60,070 nt of DNA from Candidatus Spechtbacteria bacterium (GTDB taxonomy: Bacteria; Patescibacteriota; Minisyncoccia; Spechtbacterales; JACPHP01). The stretch covers positions 1-60,070 of the forward strand of contig JACPHP010000016.1 in the NCBI GenBank assembly GCA_016188605.1. The letters are read 5' to 3'. Made by a program: the position numbers and the translations under genes. Shown piece by piece: positions 2,957 to 55,093 of this stretch (its first letter is position 1; each line of letters starts with the position of its first letter). Under the pieces are notes generated by a model. That model saw nothing but the letters and a program-made list of their open reading frames with translations, made no database searches and was not told the DNA's origin.

Positions 2957-3277
2957 ATGAGCGTTAACAAGCTATCTGGAGCAGAGAAGGAAGTCATCCG
3001 CCATGTGGTGGGGGAAAGACGAGAAATGATAGAAGGTATTGTCGGGCTTCTTAGCGCTGTTGTTGGCGAGGGAGAGGCCTTGAGCAGTACTATAGCCGTT
3101 GCCCTGATGGGCGAAGTAAATCGTATAGAGGTGGCGGGCGGAGATTCGTACGGTCTTTTTTCGCTAGAAGAAGTTAGAGCGCTAGCCCGGCGCATTGATG
3201 TTAGAGGAGACGTTGATATGCAGAATGAATTGAAGGCTGTATGCGCGCCACTCTTTCAAGTTCAAGTAAGATGGTAA
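2957..3277 (+). CDS. hypothetical protein (106 aa)
   Basis: ATG preceded by gaaaGGAGAg SD and followed by a hairpin terminator. No recognisable family. Confidence 0.55.
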   Translation: MSVNKLSGAEKEVIRHVVGERREMIEGIVGLLSAVVGEGEALSSTIAVALMGEVNRIEVAGGDSYGLFSLEEVRALARRIDVRGDVDMQNELKAVCAPLFQVQVRW

Positions 3278-3330
3278 AAAGAAGCCCGGGACTAAGTCCC
3301 GGGCTTTTCAATATGCCAGCCGTCTTTGTC
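3275..3330. repeat. direct repeat copy 1 (about 56 bp), includes terminator hairpin agcccgggact-aa-gtcccgggct
   Basis: taaaaagaagcccgggactaagtcccgggcttttcaatatgccagccgtctttgtc recurs at 4089-4145 with a single A indel. Confidence 0.9.
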
Positions 3331-3440: not shown

Positions 3441-4091
3441 ATGGTGCGGTGCATTGCGATTGACTTTGACAACACACTTGCCCACATGGACGATCCGGGC
3501 TATTCTGGTCTTTTTGCTATTTTTACGAGCCGCGGCGTTTCCCTCGAAGCAGTCAGAGAGATTTATGGCAAAGTAACAGCGCTTGTTGGGTTTACTATTT
3601 GCGCCTTGATTGACGCTATCCAAGTTGCTGGTTTATTGAAGTGTGACGATACTATTGCCATTGAAAGAGAATTCGACTATTGGCTTCTTGGACACTTGAC
3701 GTGTTACGATGATAGCACTTCGCAAGTGAACGCGTGGCTTGCTCACGGGATTCCTGTTATCATAGTAACCTCCGGAGAGGAAAGTTATCAGCGAAAAAAA
3801 ATAGAAATCTCGCAAATTGCCTGTACGGATATTATCGTTGTTCCACCAACTCGCAAAAAGTCCCATGTAATACGGGAACTTTTTGGAAAATACGGCGGTC
3901 CGATTATTATGATTGACGACAAGGCATCCGAACTTGATTCTGTAAGAGAAGATGAGCTTTCTGAATCAGACGTGCGCACTATTTGGATCAAGCGCTTTGA
4001 CGGGCGTCATACTAATCAACACGCACAGTATCCTCACAAGGAAGTGACTACTCTCGCAGATCCAATTATTATTGCCCTTATAGATCTATAA
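3441..4091 (+). CDS. HAD-superfamily hydrolase
   Basis: Motif I IAIDFDNTLAH (DxDxT) and motif IV IMIDDKASE. 216 aa. Confidence 0.8.
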   Translation: MVRCIAIDFDNTLAHMDDPGYSGLFAIFTSRGVSLEAVREIYGKVTALVGFTICALIDAIQVAGLLKCDDTIAIEREFDYWLLGHLTCYDDSTSQVNAWLAHGIPVIIVTSGEESYQRKKIEISQIACTDIIVVPPTRKKSHVIRELFGKYGGPIIMIDDKASELDSVREDELSESDVRTIWIKRFDGRHTNQHAQYPHKEVTTLADPIIIALIDL

Positions 4092-4145
4092 AAAAGAAGC
4101 CCGGGACTAAGTCCCGGGCTTTTCAATATGCCAGCCGTCTTTGTC
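4089..4145. repeat. direct repeat copy 2; bidirectional terminator between the HAD gene and the convergent acetyltransferase gene
   Basis: Same 56-bp sequence as 3275-3330. Here it encodes the last 13 codons and the stop of the minus-strand gene. Confidence 0.9.
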
Positions 4146-7310: not shown

Positions 7311-7362
7311 AGTTGAATTTCACTTAACATCAACGGCCGTTGATGTTAAGTGAAATTCAACT
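7311..7362. repeat. 52-nt perfect palindrome, copy 1
   Basis: agttgaatttcacttaacatcaacggccgttgatgttaagtgaaattcaact. The second copy is at 11979-12030. Confidence 0.95.
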
Positions 7363-9674: not shown

Positions 9675-9690
9675 GTATTTGTAAATCTAC

Positions 9691-9741
9691 GGGCGTAAAA
9701 CAAACTGCGCGGCTATTAGCCGCGCAGTTTGTTTTACGCCC
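9691..9741. terminator. 23-bp-stem bidirectional terminator between convergent parB and rel
   Basis: gggcgtaaaacaaactgcgcggc-tatta-gccgcgcagtttgttttacgccc. The right arm overlaps the last codons of rel. Confidence 0.8.
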
Positions 9742-11905
9742 GTTTGACCTCGCGCACGTCGCGAATTGCTTTAATTTTACTGATGAATCCTCGTAATTCC
9801 TCCAACGAACGCACCTCTATCGTTAGCGATATTGCGGCAACATCATTTTCCGTACGCACGCTCAGCGTGGCAATGTTGATATTTTGGTTAGCAGCAACAG
9901 TGCTGATATCCTGCATCAGTCCTACCCTGTCGTAACAAAAAACTACAAGAGAAACTAAGGCAGCTTTTGCTTGCGAGGCCTTATCCCAGTAAGCAGGGAG
10001 TAACCTGCCGTCCTCCTTAACAGTGCGGACGCTATGACAATTTTTTTTGTGAATGCTTGCGCCAGATCGTACCGTGATATACGCGATTATAGGTTCACCG
10101 GCGATTGGCGTGCAACATTGCGCGACGCGTCCTTTCATGCCTTTCTGGCCAGAGATACGAATAGGGAAAGAATCGTTGCCTTTGTTTTTTTTCTCTAAAG
10201 TTACGGGCTGAATTTTATCAGTAAAAACATCTTTCTCATCAACCAGATAACGGATGACTCTTTGCAAGGAAATCTCGCCTAAGCCAACGCCTATAAGAAT
10301 ATCATCAAGCGTTTTACTCGCAAGATGAGAGAGTAATTCCTCCTTTTTCTCTTTAGGCAGCTTGTCCCAAGATAATTGTTTGTATAGCTCAAGCTCACGG
10401 TTTATTATTTCAAGTCCACGCAAAAGATTTTCATCGCGATTTTTTTTCTTTAGCCACGTGCGAATATGCGAACGCGCCTGGTTTGTTTTAACAAACTCTA
10501 GCCATGCGCGAGAAGGCTCGCGTCCTTTGGCGCGAATAATCTCTATCACATCGCCGCTCTGGAGTTCGTAGTTTAGTGGAACCATTTTGCCATTTACCTG
10601 CGCGCCGCCGCACTCATCTCCGAGAGTGGAGTGAATGGCATAGGCAAAGTCAACCGGAGTTGCTCCTTCTGGCAAATCAAACACATCGCCTCGCGGAGAA
10701 AATACAAAGATTCTGTCTTTGAAAATATCTATTTTGAGATTTTCCATTAGTTCCTCTGACTCCGCGATTTCTTTTTGCCAATCACTGATTTGGCGCACCC
10801 AAGAGAGCTTTGGGTCGTTTGCTTTCGCGCCCTTATTTGGTTTCCCTTTTTCGTTGTATGCCCAGTGCGCGGCGATACCATTTTCCGCGTGTTCGTGCAT
10901 TTCCGGCGTGCGAATCTGAAACTCCGTCGTAACACCGTCCACGCAAAAAACCGTGGTATGCAAGCTTTGGTAGCCGTTTCCTTTTGGTAGGGCAATGTAA
11001 TCCTTAATGCGGCCGGGCAATGGCTTCCATAGTTTATGTATTACGCCGAGCGCGGCGTAACATTCCTCAATCGATTTTACGATGATGCGCGCGGCAACTA
11101 GGTCGTGAATCGCGTCCCAATTGTAATCGTATTTTTGTAATTTTCGCCACAAGCTGTACATGTGCTTTGCGCGCGCATGAACCTCCAGTGGCACGATTTT
11201 TTCTTTTTTTAATTCGCGCAGAAGCATAGGTTTTACGCGATCAAGATACTGTCCGCGCGCGGGATAGCGTTTTTTTACTTCTTCATCAATAAACTTGTAT
11301 TCGTCGGGATAGAGATGGGGAAATGCCAAGTCCTCAAGCTGTTTGGCAATTTCCGCGACACCAAGACGCATGGCAATCGGCGCGTAGATTTCCATTGTTT
11401 CAAGCGCGATGCGGCGGCGTTTTGCTTCTGGCAGCGCCGAAAGTGTTTTCATGTTGTGCAAGCGGTCAGCAAACTTAATCAGCACAACACGAATATCTTC
11501 TGCCATTGCAAGAAGCATTTTGCGCAAGTTTTCTGCGTGTCGTTCAGCCCCGCGATACTTTAATTTTCCCAATTTTGTTACGCCATTCACCAAGAAGCTT
11601 ATTTCTTCGCCGAATTCCTTTTCAAGTTCTTTTTCTGTGATATTGGTGTCTTCAACAACGTCGTGCAGCATAGCCGCGGCAACGGTAGATGGGTCAAGGT
11701 GCATCAGGGCAAGAGTGAGAGCGGCATCAAGCGGATGCACAACGTAGGGCTCGCCGGATTTTCGGAATTGCCCCTCGTGGGCATTTCTTGCCATCACAAA
11801 AGCGCGTTCAATAAGCATTCTATCTTTTTGTTTCTTAAAACAAGATAAAATTCGTTTGAGCGTTTTTTCAATATCCGTTGTTTGTTGTTCTTGCGTAAGG
11901 GTCAT
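9734..11905 (-). CDS. rel: bifunctional (p)ppGpp synthetase/hydrolase RelA/SpoT homologue
   Basis: HD hydrolase (HEGQFRKSGEPYVVHPL..HD), RelA_SpoT synthetase, and TGS and ACT regions. 723 aa. Confidence 0.95.
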   Translation of the reverse strand: MTLTQEQQTTDIEKTLKRILSCFKKQKDRMLIERAFVMARNAHEGQFRKSGEPYVVHPLDAALTLALMHLDPSTVAAAMLHDVVEDTNITEKELEKEFGEEISFLVNGVTKLGKLKYRGAERHAENLRKMLLAMAEDIRVVLIKFADRLHNMKTLSALPEAKRRRIALETMEIYAPIAMRLGVAEIAKQLEDLAFPHLYPDEYKFIDEEVKKRYPARGQYLDRVKPMLLRELKKEKIVPLEVHARAKHMYSLWRKLQKYDYNWDAIHDLVAARIIVKSIEECYAALGVIHKLWKPLPGRIKDYIALPKGNGYQSLHTTVFCVDGVTTEFQIRTPEMHEHAENGIAAHWAYNEKGKPNKGAKANDPKLSWVRQISDWQKEIAESEELMENLKIDIFKDRIFVFSPRGDVFDLPEGATPVDFAYAIHSTLGDECGGAQVNGKMVPLNYELQSGDVIEIIRAKGREPSRAWLEFVKTNQARSHIRTWLKKKNRDENLLRGLEIINRELELYKQLSWDKLPKEKKEELLSHLASKTLDDILIGVGLGEISLQRVIRYLVDEKDVFTDKIQPVTLEKKNKGNDSFPIRISGQKGMKGRVAQCCTPIAGEPIIAYITVRSGASIHKKNCHSVRTVKEDGRLLPAYWDKASQAKAALVSLVVFCYDRVGLMQDISTVAANQNINIATLSVRTENDVAAISLTIEVRSLEELRGFISKIKAIRDVREVKRA

Positions 11906-11978: not shown

Positions 11979-12030
11979 AGTTGAATTTCACTTAACATAC
12001 ACGGCCGTGTATGTTAAGTGAAATTCAACT
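11979..12030. repeat. 52-nt palindrome, copy 2
   Basis: Identical to 7311-7362 except the centre is catACacggccgtGTatg rather than catCAacggccgtTGatg. The change is symmetric and keeps pairing. Confidence 0.95.
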
Positions 12031-12036
12031 GAAATG

Positions 12037-12315
12037 GAAAAGGGGCATAGCTGTTACGCTGTGCCCCTTGCGATGAGTTGGGCTTTAGACGGCGGTATGG
12101 TGGGTTAGTGTATTGTCGAATAAGTCGCAACCCGCGACCTCATGTCCAGGGATAGGTCGAGGATTACCACAACCCTTGCGGCATTCTTTTTCTCGATTTT
12201 TTTTCGGGCACTTTCCCCTGCGGCCAAGTCGTGGTTGCCGTATCTTCGTGAAAAGTATCCCGACACATGTCATTGGCTTGAGGTTCCAGCTACGCAGGTC
12301 GCTGAATAGCGGCAG
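12037..12315 (-). ncRNA. candidate structured RNA or long leader of unknown class, bounded by two terminators
   Basis: About 245 nt of relatively GC-rich non-coding sequence between the topA terminator and the hairpin aaggggcacagcgtaacagctatgcccctttt (12037-12069). The ORFs there are not protein-like. No known RNA family core was recognised. Confidence 0.3.
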
Positions 12316-12320
12316 ACAAA

Positions 12321-12350
12321 AATTCCGCCACGCGACTGCGTGGCGGAATT
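12321..12350 (-). terminator. rho-independent terminator of topA
   Basis: Minus strand reads aattccgccacg-cagtcg-cgtggcggaatt followed by ttttt. Confidence 0.8.
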
Positions 12351-12352
12351 TC

Positions 12353-14557
12353 CTAATTCTCTTCTTTATAATCACATTCCCTGCTAGAGCACTTAATACC
12401 TTTTTTAGTTTCAACTAGCGCATTACCGCATTTCGGGCAGAGGACTACTTTTGCGTTGCCTGTACTGAGCGTAGTCGAAGTATCACCCCCTCCTTCGATT
12501 TGCGGCTTATCCCACACTGCAAAATCACATTCAGGGTACCTGCTGCAGCCGTAGAATATTTTTCCGCGCTTGGTGCGTATTTCTTTTACAAATCCCGGGT
12601 TGTCTCGCCTTGCTTGATCAGCCAAGCATTTTGGGCATTTAACTTGTGGGAATGAAGATGATGCCTGCTCAAGCGGCGCGGTATATTTGCAATCCGGGAA
12701 ACCGGAGCACGCGTAAAAGCGTCCGAAACGTCCGTTGCGGATAACAAGATTCTTTCCACACTGCGGGCAGATTTTGTCTGTTTCTTCCACTGGCGGCGTA
12801 GCTTTTTTTACTTCTTCGTATTTTTCTTCAAGAAGTTTTTTAAATGGATCATAAAATGTATGCAAAATTTTTACCCAATTTTTTTCACCCGTTGCAACTT
12901 CGTCAAGCTGCTGCTCAACATTGGCAGTAAATTGAATATCTACAATTTGCGGGAAGTGCTCCACGAGCAGGTCCGTAACCGTGATACCAATTTCTGTTGG
13001 CTGAAAACGTTTCTGTTCGTTTTTAGTGATGTAGTTTCTTTCTTGAATCGTAGAAAGCGTTGGCGCGTAAGTGGAAGGGCGGCCGATGCCAAATTCTTCA
13101 AGCGCTTTCACTAAGCTTGCCTCGCTATATCGCGCGGGCGGTTCTGTGAAATGCTGGTCGTCAGCAAGTTTATCCAAGATAAGCGGCTGATCTTTCTTTA
13201 GATCAGGCAACTCGTTTTCCTCTACTTTTACAGGATAGACGCGCAAGAATCCTTCAAATTTCATAATGGAGCCATTGGCGCGGAAGGTGTAAGGTGTGCC
13301 GGTAGCAATTGTCGCCGCGGTTGAATCAAACACTGCTTGCGCCATCTGGCTTGCGATGAATCTTTGCCAAATAAGCGCGTAAAGTTTTCGTTGAGCATCC
13401 TCCATCTTTATTGCTCCCGGTTCGCGGTCGGAATAAGCAGGCTTGCCCGCCATAGCTTCAGCGAAGGCGGGGCGAATTGCCTCGTGCGCTTCCTGCGCGC
13501 CTTTTGATTTTGTTTTAAATAAACGCGGCGCGCCAGCCCAGAATTGTTTGCCGTATTTTGTTTCAATAAAATCTCGCGCGCCAGAAAGAGCGGAATCCGT
13601 GATATTCAGCGAGTCTGTGCGGTGATATGTGATATATCCGCGCTCATACAAATTTTGCGCGAGCATCATGGTGCGCTTTGCAGAAAATCCTAATTTTCTC
13701 GCAGCTTCCTGCTGAAGGGTGCTAGTAGTAAATGGCGGCATGGGATTTCGTTTCGTTTCTTTGCGCGCGATATCCTTCACGCTCCAATCGGCGGATTTGA
13801 GAGAATTTAATATTTCATCCGCATCTTTTTTATTATGTACGTCTAATTTTTCTAAAGGCTTTTCGTCTTTGGCGTAGAGTCTGGCAAGAAAGGTTTCGCG
13901 TAATTCCGCGTCCTTTTCCGCGTTTACTCCGCGCGGTTGAAGCCAGGCTTCAACCGACCAGTATTCTTGCGGTACGAATTTTTCAATTTCGCGTTCACGG
14001 TCAACAACAAGGCGCACGGCCACTGATTGCACGCGGCCGGCGGACAGCCCACGCATAACTTTTTTCCACAAGAAAGGCGAAAGTTTGTATCCGACAAGAC
14101 GGTCAAGAATACGGCGCGCCTGCTGCGCGTCGACAAGATTGTCGTCAATTTTTCTCGGGCTTTCTAGCGCGTGTTCAATCGCGGTTTTGGTAATTTCATG
14201 GAACACGATGCGCTTGTAATCTTTTAGCTTTAATACCTCCGCCAAGTGCCAGGAAATTGCTTCCCCTTCGCGGTCGGCATCGGTAGCTAGTATGACGCTA
14301 TCTACGGCAGCGGCTTTTTTCTTTAATTCCGTAACGCGCTTTTTTGCTTTCATCGGAACAATATATTTTGGCGCAAAGTCGTGCTCGGTATCCACGCCCA
14401 GAGTTGATGTTGGCAAATCACGCACGTGGCCATACGAAGATTCCACGGTGTATTCACTGGGTAAAAATTTGCTAATGGTTTTAGCTTTAGTTGGCGACTC
14501 TACTATAATTAGTTGAGTTTCTTTTGTTGTTTGTGCTGTTTTTTTTATGCGTTGCAT
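12353..14557 (-). CDS. topA: DNA topoisomerase I
   Basis: Toprim LIIVESPTKAKTI, type IA core, and C-terminal CxxC zinc ribbons. 734 aa. Confidence 0.97.
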   Translation of the reverse strand: MQRIKKTAQTTKETQLIIVESPTKAKTISKFLPSEYTVESSYGHVRDLPTSTLGVDTEHDFAPKYIVPMKAKKRVTELKKKAAAVDSVILATDADREGEAISWHLAEVLKLKDYKRIVFHEITKTAIEHALESPRKIDDNLVDAQQARRILDRLVGYKLSPFLWKKVMRGLSAGRVQSVAVRLVVDREREIEKFVPQEYWSVEAWLQPRGVNAEKDAELRETFLARLYAKDEKPLEKLDVHNKKDADEILNSLKSADWSVKDIARKETKRNPMPPFTTSTLQQEAARKLGFSAKRTMMLAQNLYERGYITYHRTDSLNITDSALSGARDFIETKYGKQFWAGAPRLFKTKSKGAQEAHEAIRPAFAEAMAGKPAYSDREPGAIKMEDAQRKLYALIWQRFIASQMAQAVFDSTAATIATGTPYTFRANGSIMKFEGFLRVYPVKVEENELPDLKKDQPLILDKLADDQHFTEPPARYSEASLVKALEEFGIGRPSTYAPTLSTIQERNYITKNEQKRFQPTEIGITVTDLLVEHFPQIVDIQFTANVEQQLDEVATGEKNWVKILHTFYDPFKKLLEEKYEEVKKATPPVEETDKICPQCGKNLVIRNGRFGRFYACSGFPDCKYTAPLEQASSSFPQVKCPKCLADQARRDNPGFVKEIRTKRGKIFYGCSRYPECDFAVWDKPQIEGGGDTSTTLSTGNAKVVLCPKCGNALVETKKGIKCSSRECDYKEEN

Positions 14558-15494: not shown

Positions 15495-15573
15495 AATACA
15501 GATGCCATAATTACCCAAGAGGGCAAGTTATTCATAACGCAGTCCTCTTGGCTGTAATTATGGCATCTGTATT
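15495..15573. repeat. hairpin with ATGCCATAATT / AATTATGGCAT termini
   Basis: aatacagatgccataattacccaagagg (15495-15522) pairs with cctcttggctgtaattatggcatctgtatt (15544-15573). The right arm supplies the last five codons and the stop of mfd. Confidence 0.8.
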
Positions 15574-17522
15574 TCTGTTCTTATTTTCTCAATCGCGTCC
15601 TGCAGCATTTGGCAATAAAGGTTTAAGCCGATTTTATTGAGCGTGCCGCTCTGGTCGCGGCCAAGCAGGTTGCCGGCGCCGCGCATCTCAAGGTCTTTTA
15701 ATGCTATTTGATAACCGGCGCCTAAGAATTGCAATGTTTCCAAAGTCTCCACGCGTTCTTTGGCCGCGTCGTCCAGAGATTTTTCGGGGTAAAGCAAATA
15801 CGCGTAGGCCTGTACGTCGCCGCGACCGATCCTACCGCGAATTTGGTGCGCCTGCGCTAGGCCGAGCCGCGTGACATCATCAACTATTAGCGTGTTGACG
15901 TTAGAAATATCAAGGCCATTTTCAATAATGGTAGTTGCAACAAGTATATCAATTTTGCCCTTACGGAATTCGTCCATAGTGGCGATGAGCTGGTGGTCGG
16001 GAAGCTTGGCATGGCTCACTTCAACTCTGGCATCTGGAAAGAGCTCGCGGACATCCTGCGCGACTTTGTAAATTGTTTGCACTTTGTTGTGCAGAAAGTA
16101 AATCTGTCCGTTGCGTGCCAGCTCTTCTTCAATAGCTTTTTGCATTATCTTTTTATCCCACGGCGCCGCAATAGTTTTTATTGGCATGCGATTTGGCGGA
16201 GAAGTTTGAATGATGCTGACATCGCGCAGGCCGGAAAGCGTGAATGAAAGCGTGCGGGGAATTGGCGTTGCCGACAGCGAAAGAATATCAATATGCGCGC
16301 GCATTTTTTTCATGTGCTCTTTGTGGCGCACGCCAAATCTTTGCTCCTCATCAACCACAAGCAATCCCAAGTTTTTGAAGCGAACATCTTTGCTCAGTAG
16401 GCGATGCGTGCCGATAACAATATCAATAGCGCCACTGGCCAGGCCCTCAAGAATTTCTTTTTGTTCTTGTTTTGATGTTATTCGAGAAAGCATAGCCACG
16501 CGAATAGGAAATGCGGCAATGCGTTCTTGTAAGGTGCGAAAGTGCTGCCACGCGAGCACAGTCGTTGGCGCAATGAGCGCCGTCTGGCGGCCGGAAAATA
16601 CCGCGCGGGCTATGGCGCGCAAAGCAATCTCGGTTTTGCCAAACCCCACATCGCCGCAAATTAAGCGATCCATAGGATATTCTTTTTCCATATCCAAAAA
16701 TACTTCCTGGATCGCGACTGTTTGATCTCGCGTTTCTTCGTGCGGGAATTGCGAAGCAAAATCTTCTTCCATAGCGCGCTCCGCGCTGTATGGCTCTCGT
16801 GTCGCAAGCTCGCGTTTGGCGTATATTTGCGCTAGTTCTTGCGCGGTTTTAATAATATCATCGCGGGCCTTCTGTTTTGTCTTTTCCCACAGGTTGCCGC
16901 CAAGACGATGAATAGTCGGCGTACCAAAGCCGATGTAGGGTGTTACTTTACGCGCAACTTCAACAGGGACGAGAATTTTGTCGCCAGCGGCATACTCTAG
17001 AATAAGATATTGCCCTTCACGTTTAAGCGCAGTATCGTTTCTATGATTGGCAAAAGGAGGGTCTGACCCTCCTTGGAGGGTCAGACCCTCAATTCCCGCG
17101 AACCGAGCTATTCCGTGATCTTCGTGTACTACAAACATTCCCTCAACAAGCGGCATCTGCGGCAGGGGAGACGCGCGTTTTTCAATTAATTTTTTTAACG
17201 GTTTTTCAAGCTCCTCGTTTTTGATTGAGAATATCGGCGAAATTGTGTCGATGGTATTTCCTTGGAACTCAATGCGCAGCGCCGTGCGCATCGTGAGCGC
17301 AAATACATCAACAATTCCGCCGCGCGCCGCAAAGTCGCCAGGGTTATGTACCGATTGCTCTTTGCGATAGCCAAGATCGTCTAGTTTGCGTAAAAATTCC
17401 GAGAGGGAAATTTTTTGGTTCGGGTATATTTCGAATAGCTGGTAGTTCCACCAAGAACGTTCCGTGCGAGATGAAAGAATATGGTGCCAGTTTTCCTCAA
17501 ACCACAAAACGCCCTTTTCCAA
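15558..17522 (-). CDS. mfd: transcription-repair coupling factor, short form (654 aa)
   Basis: RID (VVHEDHGIARF..ILEYAAGDKILVPV), helicase motifs (GDVGFGKTE, DEEQRFG, QIRGRIGRG) and the TRG region. Most of the UvrB-homology N-terminus and the C-terminal D7 are missing. By my count the first codon of the track ORF (17520-17522) reads TGG, so the start is unresolved. The nearest in-frame TTG is at 17505-17507. Confidence 0.88.
   Translation of the reverse strand: MEKGVLWFEENWHHILSSRTERSWWNYQLFEIYPNQKISLSEFLRKLDDLGYRKEQSVHNPGDFAARGGIVDVFALTMRTALRIEFQGNTIDTISPIFSIKNEELEKPLKKLIEKRASPLPQMPLVEGMFVVHEDHGIARFAGIEGLTLQGGSDPPFANHRNDTALKREGQYLILEYAAGDKILVPVEVARKVTPYIGFGTPTIHRLGGNLWEKTKQKARDDIIKTAQELAQIYAKRELATREPYSAERAMEEDFASQFPHEETRDQTVAIQEVFLDMEKEYPMDRLICGDVGFGKTEIALRAIARAVFSGRQTALIAPTTVLAWQHFRTLQERIAAFPIRVAMLSRITSKQEQKEILEGLASGAIDIVIGTHRLLSKDVRFKNLGLLVVDEEQRFGVRHKEHMKKMRAHIDILSLSATPIPRTLSFTLSGLRDVSIIQTSPPNRMPIKTIAAPWDKKIMQKAIEEELARNGQIYFLHNKVQTIYKVAQDVRELFPDARVEVSHAKLPDHQLIATMDEFRKGKIDILVATTIIENGLDISNVNTLIVDDVTRLGLAQAHQIRGRIGRGDVQAYAYLLYPEKSLDDAAKERVETLETLQFLGAGYQIALKDLEMRGAGNLLGRDQSGTLNKIGLNLYCQMLQDAIEKIRTEIQMP
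17052..17090. repeat. in-frame double palindrome inside mfd
   Basis: aaaaGGAGGGTCTGACCCTCCttGGAGGGTCAGACCCTC. Its first 23 nt are identical to the terminator at 792-814. It encodes EGLTLQGGSDPPF. Confidence 0.9.
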
Positions 17523-29014: not shown

Positions 29015-29060
29015 AGAAGCCTAGCTTCCACGAGCGCGTGGAAGCTAGGCTTCAAGGAGA
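29015..29060 (+). terminator. 17-bp stem hairpin after the surface-protein gene
   Basis: gaagcctagcttccacg-agcg-cgtggaagctaggcttc. Confidence 0.7.
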
Positions 29061-34460: not shown

Positions 34461-34706
34461 TTAACCGTTCCAGGCATGGCCGAGATAAGCGAGAACCATG
34501 CCCAGGCCGACGAGACCAGGAGTCATGACGTAGAAGTTGCCGAACCAGGCAACTACAGGAGGATACTCGAAGTGTCCGCCGTCGTAGCCGAACACATCAA
34601 GCAGAGCGTTCATAACACGAGGCAGCATCGCTAGGCCGAAAGCCAGAGCAAGAGCTACCCCAACGAGAGCAAGAGGAGCAGAGAGAGCAGAGAACAGGAA
34701 ATCCAT
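34461..34706 (-). CDS. small integral membrane protein (81 aa), GC-rich relative to its neighbours
   Basis: GGGAGGaaaaagaaATG SD, three hydrophobic segments, and a hairpin at 34425-34449 downstream. Confidence 0.6.
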   Translation of the reverse strand: MDFLFSALSAPLALVGVALALAFGLAMLPRVMNALLDVFGYDGGHFEYPPVVAWFGNFYVMTPGLVGLGMVLAYLGHAWNG

Positions 34707-34950
34707 TTCTTTTTCCTCCCTTTCGAGGCTACTAAAAAAAGAACAACGACATTGGTTATTATCTCCTCGTGCAGTCGTAGGGTCAACTGTGGATAACTTC
34801 GGGCGCTATTATGGCTTGTACAAGCCATAATAGCGCCCATCACGCCGAAGCTCCGCTTAGCGGAGCGAGGGATGATGTATTGATTAGTGTTGTGCATAAC
34901 TATTAAACTGATATAATTATAAGCGATTTGACTTTTAATTTTTGATTTAT

Positions 34951-35454
34951 ATGGACTGGTACGCAATTCTTGTCGTGGGGCATATCATTGGCGTTGTGCT
35001 CGGCGTGGGCGGCGAAACATTTGCCGAGATTTTTCATTTGCGCGCAATGCGAGACGGTCAGATTGATGCGGTCGAGGGAGATTTTTTAAAAACGACCTAT
35101 CGCATTCTGCGAGCAGGGCTTCTCCTGCTCGTCTTATCCGGTTTTGGATTCTTGTTGTATTATCGGCTTACCGGCCAATCTGAACTTATATACCAAGCGC
35201 ATTTTTTGGCTAAATTGACTATTGTCGGCATACTCTTGGCTAACGCCGTGATGATGCAGGCAAGAAAAATGCCGCTTTGGCTTGGCAGCGCCATTTCACT
35301 CACATCGTGGTACGGAGCGCTTATTATTGGCGCGTGGGGAAGTGGCATTGGAACTTCGTATTTTACTATTATGGGGATGTATATTATTGCGATAGGCGCG
35401 GTGGCGGTGGCGATGAGCTTCGTAAGAGAATTTTTAGGCGTTAAGTTGCCATAA
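34951..35454 (+). CDS. integral membrane protein, unknown function
   Basis: About 4-5 TM helices. ATG at 34951; the track uses TTG at 34942. Confidence 0.65.
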   Translation: MDWYAILVVGHIIGVVLGVGGETFAEIFHLRAMRDGQIDAVEGDFLKTTYRILRAGLLLLVLSGFGFLLYYRLTGQSELIYQAHFLAKLTIVGILLANAVMMQARKMPLWLGSAISLTSWYGALIIGAWGSGIGTSYFTIMGMYIIAIGAVAVAMSFVREFLGVKLP

Positions 35455-49081: not shown

Positions 49082-49905
49082 AATACCGCAAACCAACGTC
49101 ACCAGGACAACGCGGGATGGTCGTTTCAGACTTTTCCGACCTAATCAAGCCGAAAAGAAAAAAACGGCTTGTTGTTGCGCATCATCGTTTTGTTGGTCGC
49201 AGCAGAGGAAAGATAACAGTGCGCCATAAAGGTAGTGGCGCAAAGCGTTTATATCGTCTCGTTGATTTCAAGCAAGATAAATTTGATATTTCCGCGACAG
49301 TTTTGCATTTGGAATATGACCCCAATAGAAGCGCGCGCATCGCATTTGTTCAATACAAAGACGGCGAAAAAAGATATGTGCTTGCCACGCAAGACACAAA
49401 GCCGGGTGATGAAATAATGTCATCAGAAAAGAAGATCGCGCTTATAAACGGCAATCGTATGCCACTTAAACATATCACCATTGGAACGTTTGTGCACAAC
49501 ATTGAGTTGGGACATAATCGTGGAGGTATGCTTGCGCGTTCTGCGGGAGCGTATGGCAAAGTTGCGGCACAGGAAGGGGCATCAACGCATATTATAATGC
49601 CTTCATCTGAAGTGCGTATAATTCAAAATGACTGTTTGGCAACAGTTGGCGTGGCGTCCAACGCTTCGCATAGCGAAGAAGTAATAGGAAAAGCAGGTCG
49701 TAATCGCCACAAGGGAATTCGTCCGACTGTTCGTGGTACAGCAATGAACCCGGTTGATCATCCGCACGGAGGAGGTGAGGGCAGAGCGCCGATTGGCATG
49801 CCTCATCCAAAGACACCGTGGGGCAAGCCCGCGCTTGGCGTGAAGACGCGAGACAGACGGCGATATTCTAACAGGCTTATTGTTCAACGAAGAAGGAAGA
49901 AATAG
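49078..49905 (+). CDS. rplB: 50S ribosomal protein L2
   Basis: KPTSPGQRG and [15 protein letters not shown] 4-nt ATGA overlap with rpsQ. Confidence 0.98.
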
Positions 49906-49908
49906 AAC

Positions 49909-50019
49909 TAAAGTTAAAAGTTAAAAGTCACAAGTTAAAAATTATAGTATGCCGCTTCGCGGCAATATATACATCCCCAAAGGGGATACCGACACTTTTA
50001 ACTTTTGACTTTACACTTT
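49909..50019. repeat. two-hairpin core module, copy a (aagttaaaagtcac-word arms)
   Basis: Core at 49941-49990: attatagtaTGCCGCttcGCGGCAatatatacATCCCCaaaGGGGATacc. Confidence 0.9.
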
Positions 50020-50033
50020 GTATTTTTTTAATT

Positions 50034-50342
50034 ATGTCACGATCACTGAAAAAAGGAGCATACGTAAATGAGAAGCTGATGAAAAAAATCGGCAAGCTTA
50101 GAGTTGGCGATAAAACCGTAATCAAGACGTGGTCGCGCTCCTCAACTATTACTCCTGAGATGATTGGATTGACTTTTGGAGTGCATAATGGCAAAGATCA
50201 TATTCCAGTGTATGTTACAGAAGACATGGTCGGACATAAGTTAGGTGAATTTTCCCCAACACGAAAGTTTGCGCGTCACGGAGGAAAAATGCAGAAAGAG
50301 ATTGAGGGTAAAGGAGTGGCACAGCCAGTAGCCAAAAAATAA
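50034..50342 (+). CDS. rpsS: 30S ribosomal protein S19
   Basis: [22 protein letters not shown] and VHNGK. Confidence 0.98.
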
Positions 50343-50351
50343 TATTAAAAA

Positions 50352-50438
50352 TGTCTACCGACGACCGCTTACCGACTACAGCTCACAGCCATCAGACGAG
50401 TAATGGGCAGTTAGCGGTCAGCGGTTGACGGTAGTCAA
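50352..50438. repeat. accgac-word hairpin spacer, copy 3
   Basis: tgtctaccgacgaccgcttaccgac pairs with agttagcggtcagcggttgacggtagtcaa (50409-50438). Confidence 0.9.
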
Positions 50439-50450
50439 TTAATTGGATTT

Positions 50451-50801
50451 ATGCCAACAGCAACAGCAAAACTTTCTTATATGCACATCGCGCCTCGCAA
50501 GGTGCGGCTTGTTGCTGATGTTATTCGTGGCATGCGTGTTGATCGAGCGGAAGAGCAGTTACGTTTTTCACGTAAACGCGCGGCCCACGATATTTTGAAG
50601 CTTTTGAAGTCTGCCCAGGCAAACGCAAGGGGATCGGAAAAAGATGTAAAAAATCCCGCACCCCTGTATGTGCGAAGTATTGTTGTTGAACAGGGTCCGG
50701 CATACAAGCGTTATCATCCGCAATCGCGAGGCCGCGCGGCATTGATTAAAAAGATAACCAGCCATGTGAAAATTGAATTGGCTGAAAAGGAAACTAAATA
50801 A
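50451..50801 (+). CDS. rplV: 50S ribosomal protein L22
   Basis: I.PRKVRLVADVIRG..V..A...L.FS.K.AA. Confidence 0.97.
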   Translation: MPTATAKLSYMHIAPRKVRLVADVIRGMRVDRAEEQLRFSRKRAAHDILKLLKSAQANARGSEKDVKNPAPLYVRSIVVEQGPAYKRYHPQSRGRAALIKKITSHVKIELAEKETK

Positions 50802-50896
50802 AGTTAAAAGTCACAAGTTAAAAATTATAGTATGCCTCTTCGCGGCAATATATACATCCCCAAAGGGGATACCGACACTTTTAACTTTTGACTTTA
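50802..50896. repeat. two-hairpin core module, copy b
   Basis: Core at 50824-50873, with stem TGCCTC/GCGGCA (a U.G pair in the sense strand). Confidence 0.9.
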
Positions 50897-50919
50897 AATT
50901 TTACACTCGCAGTAAACTT

Positions 50920-51645
50920 ATGGCACACAAAGTTCACCCCACATCATTTAGACTCGGTATTTTAACGGAATGGAAGTCACGTTGGTTTAGCGCGCGCGGA
51001 TATCAAGATAATTTGCAAGAAGAAATATACATTCGTGAGAAATTAGTGAAACAATTGCGCAGTGCCAGCATAGATAAGATTGAATTTGAACGGTCTGGAA
51101 ACAAACTTTCTGTTATTATACATACGGCTCGCCCAGGGCTTATTATTGGTCGCGGGGGCGCTGGCGCGGATGATTTACGCGCATCAATAGTGAAGATGAT
51201 ACGCGCCACTCGCTTGGTTAATAAGCCGGAAAAAGGTATAAATAAATCTACACATCATCGCGAAGACAAAAAAGAAGTAGAGCAGCCGAAGCGTCTACCC
51301 GAAGTTCGCGTTGAGATTCGCGAAGTACGACAACCCGAACTTTACGCGGCCCTTGTTGGTCAAGGTATCGCAGAGCAGCTAGAAAAACGCATGCCTTTCC
51401 GACGTGTAATTAAGCGAACATTGGATCGCGTGATGATGAATAAAGCCGTACAAGGCGCGAAGATTATGGTTAAGGGTCGTCTTGATGGTTCTGAAATGGC
51501 GCGCAGAGAGTTGGTTAGAGCTGGCCGTCTCCCTTTACAAAAGCTCCGCGCTGATATAGATTATGCTCACACCATTGCGTATACTACGTACGGTGTTATT
51601 GGCGTGACAGTGTGGATTTATCGAGGAGATAAGCTGGAGAAATAA
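50920..51645 (+). CDS. rpsC: 30S ribosomal protein S3
   Basis: MAHKVHPTSFRLGI...W.S.WF with a KH domain. The track ORF start at 50773 reads through the repeat. Confidence 0.96.
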   Translation: MAHKVHPTSFRLGILTEWKSRWFSARGYQDNLQEEIYIREKLVKQLRSASIDKIEFERSGNKLSVIIHTARPGLIIGRGGAGADDLRASIVKMIRATRLVNKPEKGINKSTHHREDKKEVEQPKRLPEVRVEIREVRQPELYAALVGQGIAEQLEKRMPFRRVIKRTLDRVMMNKAVQGAKIMVKGRLDGSEMARRELVRAGRLPLQKLRADIDYAHTIAYTTYGVIGVTVWIYRGDKLEK

Positions 51646-51646
51646 T

Positions 51647-51762
51647 AAATTCAAAATGCAAATCTTAAATCTCAAAATTATGGTGTGCCGCGGAGCGGCA
51701 CTATATACATTCCCCAAAGGGGATACCAAAGTTTTGCATTTTGAGATTTAAGTTTTGAGATT
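51647..51762. repeat. two-hairpin core module, copy c (caaaatgcaaatc-word arms)
   Basis: Core at 51677-51727: attatggtGTGCCGCggaGCGGCACtatatacatTCCCCaaaGGGGAtacc. Confidence 0.9.
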
Positions 51763-51767
51763 GAAAT

Positions 51768-52181
51768 ATGTTAGTCCCAAAGAAGGTAAAACATCGTAAA
51801 TGGACAAAGGGCCATCATCGTACGGCGATAGATTCGCGTGGCACGACGCTTAGTTTTGGTTCTTACGGTCTGCAAGTCAAGGAAGGCCATGGGCGTGTTA
51901 CGAGCCGTCAGATTGAAGCTGTGCGCCGCGTGTTTACACGCGCGATGAAAAAAGGAGGAAAAGTGTGGATCCGTATTTTCCCAGATCGGCCAATAACTAA
52001 GAAAGGAGTGGAGGTTCCGATGGGCGGAGGAAAGGGTTCGGTAGAGCATTATGTGGCGGACGTTGGTCCGGGACGCATTTTGTTTGAGATTGATGGAATA
52101 ACTCCCGATGTCGCAAAAGAAACAATGCGGCTTGCAGGATTCAAGCTGTCGGTGCGGACACGGATGATTACTAGAGAGTAA
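51768..52181 (+). CDS. rplP: 50S ribosomal protein L16
   Basis: MLVPKKVKHRK...G, with the G.YGL pattern and RQIEA.RR. Confidence 0.98.
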   Translation: MLVPKKVKHRKWTKGHHRTAIDSRGTTLSFGSYGLQVKEGHGRVTSRQIEAVRRVFTRAMKKGGKVWIRIFPDRPITKKGVEVPMGGGKGSVEHYVADVGPGRILFEIDGITPDVAKETMRLAGFKLSVRTRMITRE

Positions 52182-52287
52182 AAGTTAGTTAAAAGTTAAA
52201 AGTCACAAGTTAAAAATTATAGTATGTCGCTTCGCGGCAATATATACATCCCCAAAGGGGATACCGACACTTTTAACTTTTGACTTT
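52182..52287. repeat. two-hairpin core module, copy d, at the non-canonical L16|L6 junction
   Basis: Core at 52216-52265, with stem TGTCGC/GCGGCA (a U.G pair in the sense strand). Confidence 0.9.
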
Positions 52288-52308
52288 AAATTTTACACTT
52301 ATTTAATT

Positions 52309-52851
52309 ATGTCACGAATTGGCAAACAACATATTACGTTACCAAAAAATGTCACGATCGAACAAAACGACCGTGTTTTGAATATAAGCGGGCCGCGGGG
52401 CGCGCTTTCCATAATACTAACCAATGAGGTTGAAGTAAGAAATGAGAATGGCGTATATATTGTTGGGCTTTCTAGCAATGAACTAAATAAAAAAAGCGTA
52501 TCTTTATGGGGGCTTACAAAACGCTTAATTGAAAATGCCGCGAAAGGAGTAAGTGAAGGGTTTAGTAAGAAAATGTTTATTGAAGGTGTTGGCTACCGGG
52601 CAGAAATACAGGGGAAAGATTTAGTGTTGAGTTTGGGATTCTCTCATCCGGTTCGCATTTCTGCTCCAGAAGGAATACAATTCAATGTTGATAAAAACAC
52701 ACTTACTGTTTCGGGGAACGATAAATATCTAGTTGGGCAGGTTGCGGCAAATATCCGCGTGTATCGAAAGCCAGAACCATATAAAGGAAAGGGTATTCGT
52801 TATGAGGGCGAACGCGTTCGTCGCAAGGCTGGTAAGAAAGCGGCTGCGTAA
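52309..52851 (+). CDS. rplF: 50S ribosomal protein L6
   Basis: MSRIGKQ.I.LP..V and PEPYKGKGIRY. Confidence 0.97.
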   Translation: MSRIGKQHITLPKNVTIEQNDRVLNISGPRGALSIILTNEVEVRNENGVYIVGLSSNELNKKSVSLWGLTKRLIENAAKGVSEGFSKKMFIEGVGYRAEIQGKDLVLSLGFSHPVRISAPEGIQFNVDKNTLTVSGNDKYLVGQVAANIRVYRKPEPYKGKGIRYEGERVRRKAGKKAAA

Positions 52852-52879
52852 TTGATTTTAATTATTTGAACAAAGATTT

Positions 52880-53245
52880 ATGGAAAGTCGCGTCTCTACA
52901 AAAAAAAGAATATTAAGAAATCGTCGTCACAAGCGAATTCGCAGTACGATGCAGGGGACCAAACAGCACCCGCGGCTTTGCGTATTTCGTTCAAATACAT
53001 CAATATACGCGCAAATTATTGATGATGAGAAGGGTATGGTATTGGCTTTTGCAACAGATCGTAAGTTGAATGATAAAAAGAAAGAAGGTAAGGTTGGCCG
53101 CGCGGAGCGAGTAGGAGAGCAAATCGCTGAACTTGCCAAGAATGCGGGTATTAAAAAAGTGAAATTTGATCGCGGAGGATATAGATATCACGGTCGTATA
53201 AAAGCGCTTGCCGATGGCGCAAGGAAAGGAGGGTTGATATTCTAA
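52880..53245 (+). CDS. rplR: 50S ribosomal protein L18
   Basis: R..R.R......T...PRL.VFRSN..IYAQIIDD and FDRGGY.YHGR.KALA. Confidence 0.97.
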   Translation: MESRVSTKKRILRNRRHKRIRSTMQGTKQHPRLCVFRSNTSIYAQIIDDEKGMVLAFATDRKLNDKKKEGKVGRAERVGEQIAELAKNAGIKKVKFDRGGYRYHGRIKALADGARKGGLIF

Positions 53246-53343
53246 CTAAAGTTAAAAGTCACAAGTTAAAAATTATAGTATGTCGCTTCGCGGCAATATA
53301 TACATCCCCAAAGGGGATACCGACACTTTTAACTTTTGACTTT
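53246..53343. repeat. two-hairpin core module, copy e, at the non-canonical L18|S8 junction
   Basis: The core at 53272-53321 is identical to copy d. Confidence 0.9.
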
Positions 53344-53363
53344 AAATTTTGAATTTATATTTT

Positions 53364-53756
53364 ATGCATTCCGATCCAATAGCAGACATGCTTAATCGAA
53401 TAAAGAACGCTTCTATACTCCACCACGAGGTGGTGAAGATTCCGTATTCCAAAGTAAAAGGGCAACTCGCCGATTTGCTATTGGAAGAAGGTTTTTTGGC
53501 AGGAGTGGATCGCAAGAAAGACGGCGTGCGAAAATATCTTGTTATTAATTTGCGCTATGAAGGGGGTGCGTCGGCAGTTAATGGAGTTGCGCGAATCAGT
53601 AAGCCTGGGCGCCGTATGTATGTTAAGGCGGCGGAAGTTAAGCCGGTTAAGCATGGCTATGGTTGCGCGGTTATATCAACGTCCAAAGGTCTCATGACGG
53701 ATAAGCGCGCCCGCGAGAAAGGGCTTGGCGGAGAGTTTTTTTGTAAAGTTTGGTAA
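53364..53756 (+). CDS. rpsH: 30S ribosomal protein S8
   Basis: DPIADMLNRIKNA and ST..G....RA....GGE. The ATG at 53364 is preferred to the track TTG at 53349. Confidence 0.96.
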   Translation: MHSDPIADMLNRIKNASILHHEVVKIPYSKVKGQLADLLLEEGFLAGVDRKKDGVRKYLVINLRYEGGASAVNGVARISKPGRRMYVKAAEVKPVKHGYGCAVISTSKGLMTDKRAREKGLGGEFFCKVW

Positions 53757-53767
53757 AAAGGTACATT

Positions 53768-54433
53768 ATGCCAACACCACAATTATCACAATCAAGAAAT
53801 TCACAAGACCATCGTCGTATGGGGCCTGGAGGAGGAAGGGGGGGCGAGCGAAGGGGTGGGATACAGCAAAGGAGAGAACGAGGTCCGCAAACTCAAAGAG
53901 AGGGATCGCGTTTTGCGTCACAAGAATTTGAGCAAAAACTTTTACAGCTTGCTCGCGTTGCTCGTGTCACGAAAGGCGGACGACGATTTAGTTTCCGCGC
54001 GACAGTAGTTATTGGTGATCGCAATGGTCGTGTCGGGGTGGGGGTTGCAAAGGGAACTGACGTTTCCGCGGCAGTTGAAAAAGCCGTGCGTAATGCTAAG
54101 CGCGCTTTGATTATTGTCCCAATGACAAAAAATAAGACTGTTCCTTATGAAGTCATCGGCAAGCAGACTAGCGCCCGAGTATTTTTGGCACCGGCATTCG
54201 GCGGGCGTGGAATTATTGCTGGAGGCGCTGTGCGCGCAGTGTGCGACCTGGCAGGATATCGTGATATTTCAGCAAAAATTTTAGGACGCACGAGTAATAA
54301 ATTAAATAACGCGCTTGCAACCATTAAAGCATTGCAATCAATTAAGATGATGAAGCGAGGAAAGGTTACGCAAAACGAAGTAATCTCAAACGAAACGGTC
54401 GTGAGTGAGGATGAGGTTCAACTAGTAAAATAA
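53768..54433 (+). CDS. rpsE: 30S ribosomal protein S5 with an Arg/Gly-rich N-terminal extension
   Basis: VTKGGRRFSFRATVVIGDRNGRVGVGVAKG, preceded by about 50 aa of GGGRGGERRGG-type sequence. Confidence 0.95.
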   Translation: MPTPQLSQSRNSQDHRRMGPGGGRGGERRGGIQQRRERGPQTQREGSRFASQEFEQKLLQLARVARVTKGGRRFSFRATVVIGDRNGRVGVGVAKGTDVSAAVEKAVRNAKRALIIVPMTKNKTVPYEVIGKQTSARVFLAPAFGGRGIIAGGAVRAVCDLAGYRDISAKILGRTSNKLNNALATIKALQSIKMMKRGKVTQNEVISNETVVSEDEVQLVK

Positions 54434-54437
54434 AATA

Positions 54438-54519
54438 TCTAGAATACAGAATCTAGAATACAGAATGCAGGAAAAACTAACCGCAACTCCCCGTATTCTT
54501 GATTCTGTATTCTGTATTC
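54438..54519. repeat. word-built hairpin spacer (exact 14-nt tandem tctagaatacagaa x2)
   Basis: Units at 54438-54451 and 54452-54465, then ATGCAGG. The right arm is gtattcttgattctgtattctgtattc. Confidence 0.9.
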
Positions 54520-54525
54520 AAAGTT

Positions 54526-54969
54526 ATGCAGATGCACGAATTACAAAAACCGAAGACTCAGAGAAAATCTCGACGCGTGGGACGCGGCGGAAAGCGCGGT
54601 ACTTATTCTGGTCGTGGCATGAAAGGGCAAAAAGCGCGCGCGGGCGCAAAGATACGCCCGGAATTCCGTGAATTTTTTAAGCGCGTTCCGAAGCTCCGCG
54701 GCTCAAACGGCCCAACTTTTGCATTCAAAAAAAATAATGTAGAGGTGGTTTCCCTCCAGGCGCTTGATAAATATTTTGAAAAAGGAGATGTTGTATCGCC
54801 AAAGACACTGGTTGAGCACAAGGTTGCCGTTAAGCTTAACGGCCGCTTGTCACTTGTAAAGATTCTCTCTAAAGGTACAATTTCTAAAGGAGTGAATGTG
54901 GAAGGATGTTCCCTTTCAGCATCAGCACGTAAGCAGATTGTGAGTGCAGGAGGAAGCGTTAAAAACTAA
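54526..54969 (+). CDS. rplO: 50S ribosomal protein L15
   Basis: RRVGRGGKRGTYSGRGMKGQKARAG. It directly follows rpsE, with no L30 gene between them. Confidence 0.95.
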   Translation: MQMHELQKPKTQRKSRRVGRGGKRGTYSGRGMKGQKARAGAKIRPEFREFFKRVPKLRGSNGPTFAFKKNNVEVVSLQALDKYFEKGDVVSPKTLVEHKVAVKLNGRLSLVKILSKGTISKGVNVEGCSLSASARKQIVSAGGSVKN

Positions 54970-55088
54970 ACTCAAAATGCAAATCTCAAATCTCAAAATT
55001 ATGGTGTGCCGCGAAGCGGCACTATATAAATCCCGCCAGAGGCGGGATACCACAACTTTGCATTTTGAGCTTTAAGTTTTGAGATTGA
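54970..55088. repeat. two-hairpin core module, copy f (variant second hairpin)
   Basis: Core at 54998-55051: attatggtGTGCCGCgaaGCGGCACtatataaaTCCCGCCagaGGCGGGAtacc. Confidence 0.9.
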
Positions 55089-55093
55089 AACCT

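Follow-up and report, generated by a model that had tools for sequence, protein, structure and literature searches.

A palindromic repeat doublet, probably a REPIN, lies in frame within the mfd gene of a Candidatus Spechtbacteria bacterium

Introduction

Repetitive extragenic palindromes (REPs) are also known inside genes, where more than half of them are dimers, the host open reading frames (ORFs) stay open, and about 20–30 residues are encoded (Di Nocera et al. 2013, PMC3733652). Intragenic REPs are often found in genes of replication and DNA repair, among them uvrA, uvrB, uvrD, polA, recBCD, and dnaE, and the recB genes of two Xanthomonas species carry different REPs at about the same site (PMC3733652). 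An inverted doublet of REPs that constitutes the repeated unit is defined as a REPIN, a REP doublet forming a hairpin (Bertels & Rainey 2011, PMC3116915). Here, we describe a palindrome doublet inside the mfd gene in 60,070 nucleotides of DNA from a Candidatus Spechtbacteria bacterium (contig JACPHP010000016.1, positions 1 to 60,070 of the forward strand; this whole stretch is hereafter called the window). The element is probably a REPIN of a small family from Patescibacteria (candidate phyla radiation, CPR), spread by a Y1 transposase and tolerated as an in-frame insertion in a loop of Mfd.

The element resembles the intragenic REP dimers in being a short palindromic dimer inside the open ORF of a repair gene, but differs from them in its host, which belongs to the Patescibacteria, and in its gene, mfd, which the available text and supplements of that study do not mention (PMC3733652). 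It also differs from the REPs described there in lacking GTAG or CGTC, in having an outer stem of CAAAAG/CTTTTG, and in being very compact, with a 2-nt spacer and 12–13 encoded residues. As in systems of REPINs and REP-associated tyrosine transposases (RAYTs), two inverted REPs form a long hairpin and singlets occur as well (PMC3116915); a gene for a Y1 transposase of the HUH type that is flanked by the REPs is known from genomes other than that of the window. Classical REPINs, however, are extragenic, number tens to hundreds, and span about 70–110 bp, whereas the family of the window has about 4–5 doublets of 34–45 nt, one member of which is coding. The transposases associated with the present family are about 240 aa long and score under the curated RAYT cut-off. 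The hairpin-bracketed gene is also reminiscent of IS200/IS605 elements, whose Y1 HUH transposases recognise subterminal hairpins in single-stranded DNA. IS200/IS605 elements have distinct left and right ends, whereas here the same palindrome stands inverted on both flanks and the hairpins also stand alone.

Rickettsia palindromic elements (RPEs) of the RPE-1 type are about 100–150 bp long and specific to Rickettsia. In size and host, the element of the window falls outside the RPEs, as it measures 36–42 nt, comes from a metagenome-assembled genome (MAG) of Patescibacteria, and is tied to a Y1 family. Similarly to RPEs, it is a mobile palindromic repeat placed in frame at a fold-tolerated position of a functional protein (PMC3733652). 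An earlier sequence-only reading of the window had proposed this likeness, and it is borne out by the in-frame insertion into a loop of Mfd, the intact ORF, and the disordered tip in which the insert lies. In the literature searched, no publication dealing with REPs or RAYTs of Patescibacteria turned up. The locus extends a known kind of event, the intragenic REP dimer, to Patescibacteria and to mfd.

The palindrome pair inside mfd

The palindrome pair and its intergenic counterpart have the following positions in the window:
15558–17522, minus strand: short-form Mfd-like gene that hosts the insert, a 654-aa ORF assigned from Pfam domains and alignment to PDB entries
17051–17091, unstranded: REP doublet (probable REPIN) with its outer CAAAAG flank, an inverted repeat with 16-bp arms and a 2-nt spacer
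17056–17072, unstranded: REP copy 1, GGAGGGTCTGACCCTCC, with T at its centre on the plus strand, an exact match and the same as 796–812
17075–17091, unstranded: REP copy 2, GGAGGGTCAGACCCTCa, with A at its centre, in inverted orientation and with one mismatch (last base)
17052–17090, minus strand: codons of the REP-encoded peptide EGLTLQGGSDPPF, ORF residues 145–157, from the translation
788–818, unstranded: intergenic REP singlet, C-A7-GGAGGGTCTGACCCTCC-T5-G, between an ORF ending at 666 and glmS (1069–2901)

Direct comparison shows that aaaaGGAGGGTCTGACCCTCCtt is present at both 792–814 and 17052–17074, with 23 of 23 bases identical, in agreement with the sequence-only reading. A pattern search of the window for GGAGGGTCWGACCCTCC, allowing up to 2 mismatches, yields three copies (796–812, 17056–17072, and 17075–17091), and 0 of 100 dinucleotide-preserving shuffles of the window contain a match. 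The second copy in mfd had been described as having an inverted centre, and it is indeed the reverse complement of the first, with which it forms 16-bp arms around the 2-nt spacer. The minus strand of the pair reads GAG GGT CTG ACC CTC CAA GGA GGG TCA GAC CCT CCT TTT, which encodes E G L T L Q G G S D P P F. The peptide is preceded by HGIARFAGI and followed by ANHRNDTALKREGQYLILEYA, and both flanks of the insert are uninterrupted Mfd coding sequence. The mfd gene sequence shows 0 differences among independently assembled contigs of 4 groundwater metagenome runs, and the insert is therefore not an artefact of a single assembly. No insert-less variant is present among the contigs of the 4 source runs, which is weak evidence, since contigs drop rare variants.

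A doublet repeated in the source metagenome

The inverted doublet is a repeated unit in the source metagenome. The sequencing depth over the doublet is 4.3–4.4 times that of its flanks in runs X4 and X1, with the rise located at 17052–17090 in the fine table, and about 3 times in the coarser bins of all 4 runs. The depth is raised because other contigs carry the same doublet. The doublets of the other contigs have the same arms, a spacer of either TTT or 5 nt, and genome-like contig depth. One 23,443-nt contig with a depth of 20.6 (the mfd contig has 20.4) contains a further singlet with AAAA..TT flanks and one doublet. The short imperfect palindrome is thus found at several loci of one genome, comprising the 2 loci of the window, at least 2 more doublets, and 1 more singlet. 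The palindrome had been read as doubled inside mfd; the two copies are there, but a local doubling is improbable, as the inverted doublet is repeated elsewhere in the source metagenome. The doublet is able to fold as a single hairpin and recurs with other spacers. A small family whose repeated form is the inverted doublet fits the definition of REPINs (PMC3116915).

A scan of metagenomes for doublets of the window palindrome identified 24 loci, 9 of which have low GC content. Five of these nine low-GC doublets are in frame within recognisable genes: two orthologous radical-SAM genes, where they occupy the same site, and genes for an RsmI-type methylase, GlmS, and a YchF-like GTPase. The sequence-only reading had recommended a search for additional coding copies, and they exist in these radical-SAM, rsmI-like, glmS, and ychF-like genes. 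The high-GC loci are REP arrays with a different type of flank, one of which adjoins a Y1 transposase.

In a MAG of the Limisphaerales (Verrucomicrobia), the same palindrome forms a doublet whose spacer is 10 nt long (L088, 3002–3043), and 2 more contigs of this MAG have copies, which indicates that the core sequence serves as a repeat in distant phyla.

DNA-uptake sequences are enriched in repair genes, and the adjacent dprA gene prompted the idea that the palindrome is such a sequence. This candidate was rejected, since the 60 kb contain no more than 3 copies and half-sites are few.

The insert forms the tip of a β-hairpin in the RNA-polymerase-interacting domain

The Mfd protein of the window contains UvrB_inter (residues 32–107), CarD_TRCF_RID (127–197), DEAD (266–424), and Helicase_C (463–567) domains in Pfam. 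The presence of an RNA-polymerase-interacting domain (RID) and an SF2 translocase module (PF02559, PF00270, and PF00271, together with PDB matches to Mfd) identifies it as a member of the Mfd family. In a Pfam scan, the 654-aa protein has no match for the UvrB-homology module at the N terminus or for the TRCF domain at the C terminus. The close homologues are all 620–700 aa long, and the short form is general among these Patescibacteria homologues. Two parts of the gene are relevant to the position of the insert:
16932–17144, minus strand: codons of the RNA-polymerase-interacting domain, residues 127–197 (PF02559, 49.1 bits, cut-off 23)
17022–17075, minus strand: codons of the RID β-hairpin tip, a loop modelled with low confidence, ORF residues 150–167 (predicted local distance difference test, pLDDT, below 50 at P0001 residues 145–162)

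The match to PF02559 spreads 71 residues over a profile of 57 positions, which points to extra residues within the domain. The RID region aligns to the solved Mfd structures 6ac6 and 6x26 with E values of 1e-12 to 3e-10. Compared with the Mfd proteins of known structure from E. coli and mycobacteria, the Mfd of the window is 14–15 residues longer exactly at the insert. In an AlphaFold2 model with a mean pLDDT of 79.4, residues 132–143 and 164–171 form β-strands connected by a coil of residues 144–163 (P0001 numbering, which is the ORF numbering minus 5). The REP-encoded residues are, according to this model, the disordered tip of the RID β-hairpin. The translation and the CarD_TRCF_RID match agree with the earlier placement of the pair in frame in a loop of the RNA-polymerase-interacting domain, and the host ORF remains open around this fold-tolerated site.

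A search of genome contigs with an alignment of full-length Mfd selected motifs that all bacteria share and retrieved Mfd of every phylum, in which CPR is represented only by L004 and L005. The loop was compared among 120 aligned homologues of the Patescibacteria type, each 620–790 aa long. In these 120 proteins, the segment bounded by the motifs HG[IV]xxFxG and YxxLEYA varies in length between about 0 and 60 aa. The loops of P0004 and P0005, whose sequences are 58–64% identical to the Mfd of the window, are short, in keeping with the earlier suggestion that the segment is lineage-specific, and the loop of P0002 contains an insert unrelated to that of the window. Only one orthologue, P0003, shares the peptide, and there the coding DNA is the same palindrome and not an unrelated sequence.

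In many Paceibacteria-type Mfd genes (loci L117, L144, L145, L122, L005, and L200), low-complexity inserts of 20–40 residues with NFQFS, KSQ, and NPK motifs stand at the same hairpin tip. The 8-kb loci with inserts of the NFQFS and KSQ type contain neither hairpins nor repeated 11-mers.

Related doublets in mfd genes and elsewhere

The mfd gene of locus L001, which encodes P0003 (67% identical to the Mfd of the window), contains GAGGGTCTAACCCC...CCCTAGGAGGGTCAGACCCTCCTAGGG at the same codon as the window. The second 17-nt REP core is 100% identical between the two, and 9 of 10 REP codons are identical, compared with 46% gene-wide. This codon identity would fit a recent insertion or homogenisation better than the neutral decay of an old insert. 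The 3' junctions are unlike, with TTTTGCC in the window and TAGGGAT in L001. P0005, which is 86% identical to P0003 in protein and 79.5% in DNA, has no palindrome. The Mfd of the window is 64–67% identical to P0003 and P0005, and the element has the same 5' junction in the window and P0003. Either the same REP entered one codon twice, or an old element was lost in P0005.

The mfd gene of L090 (P0060) carries a doublet of GGAAGTC[C/G]GACTTCC with 27-bp arms after the same G-I-E, in the same loop. In L212 (P0095), the doublet GAGGTCGGACCTCC-CAA-GGAGGTCCGACCTC lies 3 codons earlier. The palindromes of L090 and L212 differ by a single compensatory base pair, and those of the window and L212 by one added G:C pair and the centre base. 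The same doublet occurs in frame in tsaD of L212 (20388–20430), 10 kb from mfd, where it encodes GGPTSRKILREVGPL. L214 has one singlet and decayed copies. Palindromes are absent from the loops of P0084 (L213), P0090 (L091), and P0002 (L092).

The palindrome flanks genes of Y1 transposases

The exact palindrome with AA..TT flanks is found in only 6 stretches among 185,579 species genomes. In another MAG (L085), two copies of the palindrome 780 bp apart bracket a 244-aa Y1_Tnp gene. Both flanks contain aGCAAAGGAGGGTC[A/T]GACCCTCCTTTGCt, which is the 17-mer of the window, and the centre is inverted, one flank reading aGCAAAGGAGGGTCAGACCCTCCTTTGCt and the opposite flank being the T-centred form. 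The scores against Y1_Tnp of Pfam are 27.8 (L085 protein) and 34.1 bits, above the cut-off of 23. The sole NCBIfam family match of the L085 protein is the REP-associated tyrosine transposase NF047646, below its cut-off. The transposase sequences contain recognisable HUH (NHYH) and Y..NP motifs.

Homologues of the transposase on L239 (Spechtbacterales), L240, and L212 (Nealsonbacteria) each have their own hairpin on each side. In L085, L239, and L240, where the centre is a single base, it is inverted between the two flanks. In these other MAGs, a Y1 gene is flanked on both sides by a REP, namely by the identical 17-mer in L085 and by sister hairpins in L239, L240, and L212. Two of the transposase-flanking hairpin sets have CAAAAG...CTTTTG outer stems. 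The copies in the window have matching outer flanks, CAAAAG at 17051–17056 and C-A7...T5-G at 788–818. Because these runs of A and T match the outer stem of the transposase-flanking hairpins, they mark the palindrome as a REP, beyond a terminator.

The transposase has more than 500 homologues. Those named by taxon all belong to Spechtbacterales or Paceibacterota (CPR), and the remaining ones are labelled merely "bacterium" or "putative transposase". One Y1 homologue lies on a contig whose depth tracks that of the window genome in the 4 runs (35.5, 30.8, 43.4, and 19.9 versus 38.4, 36.5, 42.5, and 20.4), while the REP-flanked layout is known from other MAGs. We infer that a RAYT of the same genome mobilised the doublet.

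In L212, the Y1 gene (12074–12787) with CTTACGAGGCGAAGCCTCGTAAG hairpin flanks lies directly downstream of mfd, between mfd and topA, where the window has dprA.

RNA folding and transcription termination

In sense RNA, the mfd doublet of the window folds into one 15-bp hairpin with an energy of -40.5 kcal/mol (z -5.5). The sense RNAs of the Mfd lineages range from -32 to -52 kcal/mol (z -3.4 to -9.7), and the empty site of P0005 has no RNA structure (z +0.96). The intergenic singlet folds with -21.4 kcal/mol (z -4.6).

The intergenic copy alone fits an intrinsic terminator (791–817), appearing terminator-like on the minus strand. From its hairpin and A/T flanks, we predict that it can act as a two-way terminator. 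The label "terminator-type" given to the palindrome by the sequence-only reading therefore holds for the consensus of the intergenic copy, but the flanks match the CAAAAG/CTTTTG stem around Y1 genes, so the element is better described as a REP. The mfd copy is intragenic, is followed on the sense strand by only 4 U (CUUUUG), and fails the terminator scan, and the hairpins of L001, L090, and L212 are not followed by a U-tract. Attenuation inside mfd is therefore unlikely, and the idea that the site could terminate or attenuate mfd transcription finds no support.

Origin and maintenance of the insert

We consider it probable that the element is a REPIN that was spread by Y1 transposition and is tolerated in mfd. 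A REP-associated Y1 (HUH) transposase acting on hairpins of single-stranded DNA would spread REP doublets, each composed of two REPs of about 17–27 nt in inverted orientation. One copy would have reached the codons of the RID β-hairpin tip, either by landing there or by being copied. The role of a Y1 enzyme is suggested by the literature on REPINs and IS200/IS605 elements and by the flanking layout. Where genes are densely packed, many of the insertions would strike one, and the survivors would be those with a length that is a multiple of three, a reading frame other than the one in which the T-centred copy has a stop (GTC TGA), and a position in a tolerant protein loop. The mfd insert would have survived because its 36–42 nt are a multiple of three, its frame is free of stops, and the 12–14 added residues lie in an exposed disordered loop. 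The insert within mfd is most likely a tolerated passenger, and we suppose that it is neutral for Mfd function.

Several observations weigh against this reading. The scores against the curated RAYT model NF047646 are 42.2 and 35.8 bits, below its cut-off of 80. No Y1 transposase gene lies within the window, and the REP ends lack the GTAG or CGTC tag, having CAAAAG and CTTTTG flanks instead. With about 4–5 doublets per genome equivalent, the family is small compared with the tens to hundreds of classical REP families. No clean empty site with a target duplication was found; about 18 nt of P0005 appear to be replaced by 42 nt in P0003, a pattern of replacement or divergence and not of plain insertion. 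Finally, the codons of the second REP are identical in 6 of 6 positions between the window and L001 (46% gene-wide), a match that would not be expected of an old insert evolving in a purely neutral way.

The last observation is among those that could speak for a hairpin kept for a function, either as an element of mRNA or DNA (an attenuator, a pause, an RNase III site, or a binding site of a transposase or another protein) or as a peptide that tunes the contact of Mfd with RNA polymerase. Three or more Mfd lineages (window/L001, L090, and L212/L214) have strong hairpins at the same β-hairpin tip, the compensatory base pair that distinguishes L090 from L212 is altered in all 4 half-stems, and CUUUUG follows the hairpin of the window on the sense strand. 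However, 115 of 120 homologues have no hairpin-type insert as judged from the peptide pattern, the DNA of L092 and L091 is also free of hairpins, and the closest relative of P0003, P0005, does without one. The missing U-tracts of L001, L090, and L212 and the failure of the window site in the terminator scan argue against a role in termination, the peptides diverge between lineages in a loop that is disordered in the model, and the in-frame doublets in unrelated genes (tsaD and glmS) suggest tolerance over a role specific to mfd. We therefore regard a retained function as very unlikely. An origin without any transposase at the site, in which the pair was made or renewed on the spot in a freely varying loop, through a template switch at a quasi-palindrome or through gene conversion with other copies of the genome as donors, also seems unlikely to us. 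It would accommodate the start of the element at a native GAG (the Glu of the common G-I-E), which has short homology to the REP end GAGGG, the arms of L090 that reach the native-looking codons AATTGAA and TTCAATT, the tandem duplication of IGVYRG with decayed copies in L214, and the failure to recover either a target duplication or a clean empty site. Template switching does not account, however, for the 23 nt, flanking bases among them, that the element shares with a site at a distance of 16 kb; doublets with the same arms are present at other loci of the source metagenome at genome-like depth, and the same palindrome flanks a Y1 gene elsewhere, so that a mechanism of dispersal exists.

In principle, the palindrome could be a product of misassembly at a repeated k-mer or an ordinary intrinsic terminator that matches by chance, as the intergenic copy fits the terminator consensus and unrelated genomes have terminator-like hairpins with this palindrome. 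This explanation is refuted for practical purposes by the 0 of 100 shuffles with a match, the identical contigs of the 4 runs, and the orthologue in L001, which has the same palindrome and comes from another sample; the insert is moreover flanked by continuous Mfd coding sequence. More room is left for the idea that the RID tip of Mfd is a preferred site of REPIN landing or retention in Patescibacteria, reoccupied by or homogenised with evolving REPs, which we regard as a possible, though doubtful, minority reading. It is kept alive by the absence of the palindrome from P0005, the codon identity, the unlike 3' junctions, and the lack of an empty site. If it were true, a stretch of a conserved repair protein would evolve in step with a mobile element and with the transposase of that element, and the cause could be site-specific targeting or a role of the hairpin or peptide in Mfd expression or RNA polymerase contact.

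Other hairpins and repeats in the window

The intergenic REP singlet is directly preceded by an unrelated hairpin, GTGTTAGACATCCGATGTCTAACAT (763–788), so that two back-to-back hairpins stand before glmS. The topA gene contains a coding palindrome, CGGTTGAAGCCAGGCTTCAACCG (13934–13956), with an 11-bp stem that encodes VEAWLQP. The peptide resembles what we take to be the native TopA sequence, as in the E. coli protein, and the palindrome is probably due to chance.

A 52-nt perfect palindrome with 25-bp arms is located between ORFs at both 7311–7362 and 11979–12030. The two are distinguished solely by mirror-symmetric changes in their centres (CAACGGCCGTTG versus ACACGGCCGTGT) and look like a second family of hairpin repeats. 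An identical 55-nt module with the 12-bp hairpin AAGCCCGGGACTAAGTCCCGGGCTT is present at the ends of two plus-strand ORFs (3276–3330 and 4091–4145), and looks like a duplicated terminator or repeat unit. Six copies of an intergenic module of 74–131 nt, composed of an AT-rich motif followed by attatRgtRtGcCGC..GCGGCAmTATATA, lie upstream of successive plus-strand ORFs at 49904–55090, and may represent a repeated promoter or leader element. Very long perfect hairpins are found at 9689–9743, 29016–29053, and 34801–34838, with stems of 27, 17, and 18 bp, respectively. The first two are intergenic, and the third is inside a 103-aa minus-strand ORF (34655–34966) of the mechanical ORF list.

Implications

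The transposases of about 240 aa with their own hairpin flanks form a large Y1 family linked to uncultivated Patescibacteria with small genomes. In such gene-dense genomes, repeats would often survive in essential genes as short in-frame loop inserts. This has consequences for gene calling, alignment, and protein modelling in CPR, and may account for some lineage-specific loop peptides. The loop of Mfd that was repeatedly hit by related palindromes offers a system in which to ask whether targeting or a tolerance filter determines where the repeats are found, and whether a mobile hairpin can be kept up in coding DNA over the long term.

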